In this document: one piece after another, positions 46,083 through 46,340 of the stretch
Position numbering within the stretch: the first letter of the stretch is position 1
How the letters are laid out: each line of letters begins with the position of its first letter
From: a bacterium
Lineage (GTDB): Bacteria; UBA8248
Length of the DNA stretch: 64,000 nucleotides
Direction of reading: 5' to 3'
Assembly (NCBI GenBank): GCA_965203325.1
Contig: OZ241875.1
Span: 1,216,001-1,280,000 of the forward strand
Program-made: the position numbers and the translations under genes
The notes under the pieces: generated by a model
Database searches by the model: none
Told to the model about the DNA's origin: nothing
What the model saw: only the letters and a program-made list of their open reading frames with translations

Positions 46083-46295
46083 CTGGTGTCCGCTAATTGC
46101 CGTTATTGGCCCCCAGAAGCCCCGTTTTCCACCGAAAAACCCGTTTCGGGGGGCATTCGGGCCGCAAATGAGCGAAAAATGAGCGAAAAAAGGCGCGAAA
46201 CGGCGCCCGAAACCCCTCCGGGGACCCCGGAATTGCGCTTGACATGGCCGTGAGAGGTGTTTAACTTTCCGATAACGGCAATTATCGGACTCCAG
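46083..46295. promoter_or_regulatory. Candidate invertible promoter bounded by inverted recombination-like sites
   Basis: 46083-46109 and 46269-46295 are 24/27 inverted repeats with TAA-N6-TTA cores. Internal TTGACA-N17-TAACTT (46239-46267). Confidence 0.65.
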
Positions 46296-46301
46296 AAACC
46301 C

Positions 46302-46340
46302 GCCGTTTCGCCGGTATCCCCCTGCGAAACGGCTTTTTTT
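46302..46340 (+). terminator. Intrinsic terminator directly downstream of the outward-facing promoter
   Basis: GCCGTTTCGC-loop-GCGAAACGGC followed by TTTTTTT. Confidence 0.85.

Follow-up and report, generated by a model that had tools for sequence, protein, structure and literature searches.

The intergenic region ahead of a large surface-protein gene in this uncultured bacterium is likely a copy of a lox-like inverton. The copy sits in the orientation termed state A and would be an orphan, flipped in trans by a Cre-like recombinase. An invertible promoter between sites of the tyrosine-recombinase type had been predicted for the region, and sequence comparison strongly supports this reading, with the exception of the enzyme proposed at the time. 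Both orientations of the segment occur among paralogous copies, the breakpoints fall within the sites, the spacers of paired sites co-vary, and a recombinase gene is linked to 6 of 16 copies. The window refers to the entire stretch analysed, 64,000 nucleotides in length. The switch region is a 666-bp intergenic stretch between the cargo gene (ATG 45983, minus strand) and the stop codon of an HTH_17 gene (46650-47369, minus strand). The switch and its surroundings contain the following features:

40786-43209, minus strand: second surface-protein gene with Cadherin-like and Calx-beta domains (PF03160 9.3e-21, PF12733 9.5e-20)
43224-45983, minus strand: cargo gene, whose secreted product of 919 aa contains fn3 and two Cadherin-like domains (PF12733 2.4e-25, PF00041 9.8e-09)
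45984-46082, minus strand: leader from the left site to the cargo ATG, conserved in paralogues with the same cargo type
46083-46116: left recombination site, 34 bp, with outer arm CTGGTGTCCGCTAA, spacer TTGCCG (46097-46102) and inner arm TTATTGGCCCCCAG
46103-46275: putative invertible segment of 173 bp from spacer to spacer; in this copy the promoter is on the plus strand (state A, away from the cargo gene)
46166-46200, plus strand: 11-bp A-tract units, two of AAATGAGCGAA (46166-46188) and a third, degenerate unit
46239-46267, plus strand: predicted promoter, -35 TTGACA (46239-46244), 17 nt, -10 TAACTT (46262-46267)
46269-46295: right recombination site with inner arm CCGATAA abutting the -10 hexamer, spacer CGGCAA (46276-46281) and outer arm TTATCGGACTCCAG
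46302-46340, plus strand: predicted intrinsic terminator, a hairpin followed by T7, just outside the right site
46342-46608, plus strand: remnant of a Cre-like recombinase gene, an N-terminal stretch up to a stop at 46531-46533, with the last codons recognisable
46650-47369, minus strand: HTH_17 (excisionase/AlpA-like) gene, convergent with the recombinase remnant

Recombination sites, predicted promoter and terminator

The structural claims of the original prediction hold in detail. The two sites CCGCTAA-TTGCCG-TTATTGG (46090-46109) and CCGATAA-CGGCAA-TTATCGG (46269-46288) are both present, their spacers are exact reverse complements, and 173 bp lie between the spacers. The claimed inverted match of 24 out of 27 positions was recovered as a 27-nt repeat at 89% identity with arms at 46083-46109 and 46269-46295. 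A full site covers about 34 bp, with an asymmetric 6-bp spacer flanked by arms of 14 bp. Of the four half-sites, three have the sequence CTGG-N3-CCGNTAA, and the fourth, next to the -10 hexamer, retains only the 7-bp core. The pattern CCGNTAA-N6-TTATNGG matches three times in the window against 0.12 expected, with none of 100 shuffles yielding three matches. Across the genome, the pattern has 27 matches against none for a reversed-pattern control. A chance origin of the site pattern is excluded. With these arms and this enrichment, inverted repeats bounding a segment, as expected of an inverton, are found at 46083-46295.

The segment carries the predicted TTGACA-N17-TAACTT promoter. The -10 hexamer of the window is weak, and a consensus promoter scanner reported no promoter in 45500-47000. 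The -35 hexamer TTGACA is invariant in all 16 copies of the module in the genome, and most copies have a -10 of TATATT or TAAATT with an upstream TG and 16-nt spacing. The paralogue L008 encodes TTGACA-16-TATATT at the same position, matching the consensus at 11 of 12 positions, again with an upstream TG. The promoter of the segment appears to be sigma-70-type and to fire outward, with the predicted transcription start located within the inner arm of the right site. As had been proposed, the promoter points away from the adhesin genes and towards a nearby terminator, which begins 28 nt past the predicted start. The terminator hairpin is stable (-23.7 kcal/mol, z -5.74, equalled by none of 200 shuffles) and is kept in a flipped paralogue, where the promoter reads across the left site towards the leader and cargo gene. 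The window copy reads as OFF because its promoter faces the terminator, away from the gene for the 919-aa surface protein.

The A-tracts and tandem repeat noted previously were also found, with two intact units and the degenerate third. Segment lengths in relatives are 138, 148-149 and 159 bp, and the differences correspond to whole A-tract units. We infer that the A-tracts bend the DNA and hold the two sites in helical phase, so that sites 179 bp apart can synapse. Two minus-strand hairpins within the segment were considered as insulating terminators; such a role is unsupported because their folding is no better than that of shuffles (z -1.4 and -0.9). After the terminator and ahead of the recombinase remnant comes TTGGAA-16 nt-CATACT (46342-46369), which is below the threshold of the scanner, and the equivalent in copy 2078027 (copies are named by genome position) is GTGGAA-16-TATACT. 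This sequence could be a weak promoter of the recombinase gene itself.

Paralogous copies and their cargo genes

A blastn search of the intergenic region against its own 4.39-Mb genome recovers 16 copies of a 199-bp module. No copy contains an indel, and the sites are spaced by 179 bp in every case. The check for further copies and flipped alleles suggested with the original prediction was thereby productive: thirteen of the copies are in state A like the window and three (2078027, 2672535 and 3869513) are in state B, with the interior inverted relative to conserved flanks. Flipped copies also occur in G012 and L040, and both orientations of the switch are thus found in nature. Read in locus orientation, state-B copies have unchanged outer half-sites, while the inner half-sites and the neighbouring sequence are exchanged. 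The crossover must therefore lie within the 20-bp sites. In a tree built from flanks and interior with the sites omitted, state B requires three changes, and the branches with strong support already demand a minimum of two independent flips.

The spacers provide a separate line of evidence. The left and right 6-bp spacers are identical in 15 of the 16 copies, although eight different spacers occur across copies, and the sole exception (copy 3371526) has a single mismatch. Permuting the spacers gives a mean of 2.6 matches and a maximum of 11, with none of 100,000 permutations reaching 15. Tyrosine recombinases require identical spacers in partner sites for strand exchange. The matched spacers correspond to this requirement, and neither an operator nor a transposon end would need such matching. 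The palindromes might nonetheless be read, without any DNA rearrangement, as operators of a dimeric regulator, looping over 179 bp, or as belonging to a short RNA gene. The sites are indeed close to palindromes, the predicted transcription start falls within the right one, the 179-bp spacing amounts to about 17 helical turns, and the promoter and terminator together would yield a transcript of about 65 nt. Yet the flipped paralogues with breakpoints inside sites contradict such a reading, co-varying inverted spacers are superfluous for an operator, and a whole-window scan recovered no Rfam match anywhere in the window. We regard operators or an RNA gene as the least probable of all explanations considered, with hardly any weight left to them.

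Every one of the 16 switches faces a large secreted-protein or lipoprotein gene. This gene starts at a distance of 106-254 bp from the left site, and its reading direction leads away from the switch. In the window, 106 bp separate the left site from the ATG of the cargo gene. The second surface-protein gene (40786-43209) is probably co-transcribed with the cargo gene upstream of it as one operon. Seven cargo proteins are relatives of the protein in the window, two represent another fn3-rich protein, and seven, without a Pfam match, are lipoproteins with an L-A-G-C lipobox. The copies were also considered as MITEs or transposons. This was ruled out, as every copy has the same setting with a cargo gene on one side and a recombinase gene or remnant on the other. 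Within the cargo gene of the window, two adjacent units of about 355 bp (44361-45072) are 91% identical. These units coincide with the two Cadherin-like domains and might vary in repeat number. ARAGORN calls a tRNA-Ala(CGC) at 41701-41772 on the minus strand, within the coding frame of the Calx-beta protein gene, which is probably a false positive in GC-rich coding DNA.

The module lies within repeated blocks of about 2 kb that also contain the excisionase-like HTH_17 gene, here inside an integrative element. The HTH_17 protein was rejected as a switch component: among the best 80 of 105 loci with a recombinase relative, it is found beside the recombinase in five, all from one genome. The HTH_17 gene belongs to the host element and not to the core switch. 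At 3941-9228, two tandem arm-type tyrosine integrases (3941-6348) and a TrwC relaxase/helicase are encoded, gene content that indicates an integrative mobilisable element. The stretch from about 4 kb to about 48 kb also encodes giant ankyrin, Sel1 and FGE-sulfatase proteins, an SSB and a low-GC AbiE/PIN defence block (28-40 kb). The conserved block is followed on its right side by a repeat (48189-48365, about 175 bp) with more than 20 occurrences across the genome at 72-90% identity, which may be REP/MITE-like or an attachment-site relic.

A Cre-like recombinase linked to the switch

A PF00589 gene is located directly to the right of the switch in 6 of the 16 copies, in the same direction as the state-A promoter. 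A tblastn census with the recombinase of copy 2078027 (P0003) recovers six full-length genes at 80-100% identity and seven remnants, including that of the window, which contain only the first 27-66 residues; three copies have nothing. This linkage, through adjoining genes and remnants, points to a cognate recombinase of the switch. The original prediction had noted no invertase adjacent to the sites. This is correct for an intact gene, but a remnant of the recombinase gene without the catalytic domain is present at 46342-46608. The remnant matches P0003 at 61% identity over 51 residues only. About 660 bp of copy 2078027 are missing (residues ~81-300, including all catalytic residues), with the junction near 46573-46585. 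A second fragment resembling the recombinase C-terminus (about query residues 239-268, 73% identity) is found on the minus strand at 47640-47729, past the HTH_17 gene but still within the repeated block. Several other copies are accompanied by the same fragment.

P0003 belongs to the tyrosine recombinases (PF00589 6e-18), with Cre as its closest solved relative (E 1.4e-12, residues 91-307). Its residues R159, E162, K184, H258, R261, W284 and Y293 align to the active-site residues of Cre. By this alignment, the R-E-K-H-R-W-Y set and the C-terminal catalytic fold are present in P0003 and absent from the window remnant. P0003 scores far below the curated cut-offs for XerC (TIGR02224, 48.1 bits, cut-off 335.15) and XerD (TIGR02225, 33.9 bits, cut-off 329.6), and likewise for XerA and XerS. 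Models of FimB/FimE-type invertases yield 21.7 bits (NF007371, cut-off 222) and 17.8 bits (NF007370, cut-off 221).

These scores bear on the enzyme first proposed for the switch, which was either host XerC/XerD or one of the two arm-type integrases of the element (3941-6348). The TAA-N6-TTA core does resemble Xer-type sites, and the 38 PF00589 matches in the genome include two strong ones that are Xer-like. In contrast, a dedicated recombinase gene or remnant is linked to 13 of the 16 switches and to 13 related loci elsewhere, and this recombinase family is Cre-like rather than Xer-like. The integrases are 40 kb off and unlinked to the switch in other copies. With six intact paralogous recombinases in the genome, neither host XerCD nor the two integrases are necessary, and we consider their involvement very unlikely.

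The window copy is an orphan because its recombinase gene retains no catalytic domain, and any flipping must consequently come in trans. The window shares its arm sequences exactly with copy 705705, where the recombinase gene is intact, and two state-B copies are without an intact recombinase gene themselves (3869513 has a remnant and 2672535 no recombinase sequence). Orphans have therefore flipped, and for both reasons the action of a paralogous recombinase on this copy is plausible. Alternatively, the copy could be a fossil of a family that is, or once was, invertible, locked in state A beyond the action of the paralogous enzymes, with an adhesin operon that is permanently silent or driven by some other promoter. 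A fossil would fit the remnant with its stop codon and the weak -10 hexamer, and the closest copy in the sister species (G012:C1:730327-730714) is also in state A. Four sequencing runs (X1, X2, X5 and X6), consisting of short contig fragments of which none bridges a site with 31 letters on each side, contain joints only at 45443-45768, outside the switch, and none of the joints changes strand. Against a fossil speak the two intact sites with their identical spacers, the arms shared with an enzyme-bearing copy and the state-B orphans. We judge a locked copy to be unlikely, though less so than flipping by Xer proteins or integrases.

On the preferred reading of an orphan flipped in trans, the Cre-like recombinase, encoded beside the switch in intact copies, would exchange strands within the spacers, and the 173-bp segment would flip as a result. 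In state A (the window and 12 other copies), the promoter would fire into the terminator ahead of the recombinase gene, leaving the surface-protein operon OFF. In state B, the promoter would read via the left site and a leader of about 120 nt into the surface-protein gene, which would then be ON. A flipped window copy is predicted to have a cargo 5' UTR of about 120 nt. One of the six intact paralogous recombinases might supply the activity for this orphan.

Distribution and comparison with known systems

The switch extends beyond this genome. Of the 22 other species searched within the genus, 12 contain switch DNA, in about 20 matches that include one flipped copy (G012). Among 8000 candidates scored against the recombinase, 1675 are relatives at E ≤ 1e-5, all under generic database names, and genome contigs contain 202 matching stretches, 105 of which encode a recombinase relative. 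The best 80 of these 105 share 30-96% identity and have labels including Nitrospinota, Tectimicrobiota/Entotheonella, Binatia, Dehalococcoidia, Latescibacterota, Poribacteria and Acidobacteria classes, with most phylum labels in the group at 43-78%. Leaving out 19 partial matches, 61 loci were scanned for paired sites. Thirteen have the same paired sites upstream of the gene, with matched spacers in all 13. State A accounts for twelve of these pairs, including one weak call, and state B for the remaining one. In a scan of 47 loci at greater distance, from which L056 was left out, only six have another inverted repeat of at least 18 nt within 800 bp upstream, and the switch is thus demonstrated only for closer relatives of the recombinase. 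The dominance of state A, both here (13/16) and elsewhere (12/13), suggests that flips may be rare or that many copies are frozen.

Judged by shared words, whose proportions are small, DNA of the genome appears to occur mainly in metagenomes from sponges and other marine sources. Of the 24 sequencing runs listed, none is on record as RNA. In the metagenome contig collection, the exact 24-nt promoter core has no match. The 41 matches to a looser pattern were dismissed as chance, with local alignments to the 199-bp module scoring at most 21, and the collection contains no copy of the switch. The literature searched, with subscription journals and bioRxiv supplements outside its scope, holds no description of this switch or recombinase family.

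Promoter inversion is a classic route to phase variation. To our knowledge, nearly all known cases come from pathogens in culture and from gut bacteria. In this uncultured genome, as many as 16 large surface proteins appear to be controlled by lox-like sites and a Cre-like enzyme family. Active switches would provide a testable mechanism for cell-to-cell variation of symbiont surfaces and explain how orphan switches stay usable after the loss of the enzyme gene. They would also offer naturally occurring, orthogonal spacer variants that serve a single recombinase family. More tentatively, the sixteen lox-like switches might form a genome-wide switchboard, each controlling a different surface protein or lipoprotein, with ten orphans flipped by six recombinases, diversified matched spacers preventing recombination between copies, and a cassette that moved among many phyla sharing the sponge host. 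We consider this broader picture possible but somewhat short of probable; if true, the cassette would be a shared tool for varying what the sponge host sees.

Several known systems share parts of this arrangement. In the fimS switch of E. coli type 1 fimbriae, FimB and FimE flip a promoter segment between inverted repeats, turning adhesin expression ON or OFF. As in fimS, a short promoter segment lies between inverted repeats with an adjacent tyrosine recombinase gene and apparent control of a surface adhesin. Unlike fimS, which has 9-bp repeats, the sites here are 34 bp and lox-like, with a segment of 173 bp, and the recombinase falls outside the FimB/FimE family by the scores given above. 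Further differences from fimS are the 16 copies per genome, most without their own enzyme, and a promoter that in the OFF state faces a terminator and the recombinase gene.

The loxP site of phage P1 has 13-bp arms and an 8-bp spacer, inverted sites give inversion, and spacer identity is required. The sites described here similarly have two inverted arms and an asymmetric spacer within 34 bp in total, and the seven active-site residues of the enzyme align with those of Cre. The partition is 14 + 6 + 14 instead of 13 + 8 + 13, however, so that these are not loxP-type sites in the strict sense, and the sequence similarity between Cre and the recombinase is only distant. In contrast to Cre/loxP, the sites flank a promoter next to the gene for a cellular surface protein, and no role in phage or plasmid maintenance is evident. 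The switch shares with XerCD/dif a tyrosine-recombinase core site with a TAA-N6-TTA centre. However, inverted pairs occur at 16 places in contrast to a single terminus site, the outcome would be inversion and not dimer resolution, and the linked enzyme scores 48 against 335 for XerC and 34 against 330 for XerD.

Further parallels are the invertible promoters of Bacteroides and the RecV switches of C. difficile. The portions of the sources considered here describe many switches per genome, often upstream of surface structures, and flipping of multi-locus invertons in trans by a recombinase encoded elsewhere (PMC9286219, PMC8890394, PMC11602134). The portion of PMC11602134 covered contains no mention of sponge or Nitrospin. 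As far as these portions extend, the present system resembles both in having many promoter switches and few recombinases per genome, and differs in recombinase family, sites and host, which is uncultured and apparently sponge-associated. Within the same limits, each switch here has a matched and often private spacer, unlike those systems, and the module is part of repeated blocks of about 2 kb with an HTH_17 gene, inside an integrative element. By sequence comparison, the switch is in kind an inverton, whose enzyme falls outside the families of fimS, Bacteroides, C. difficile and Xer and is closest to Cre.
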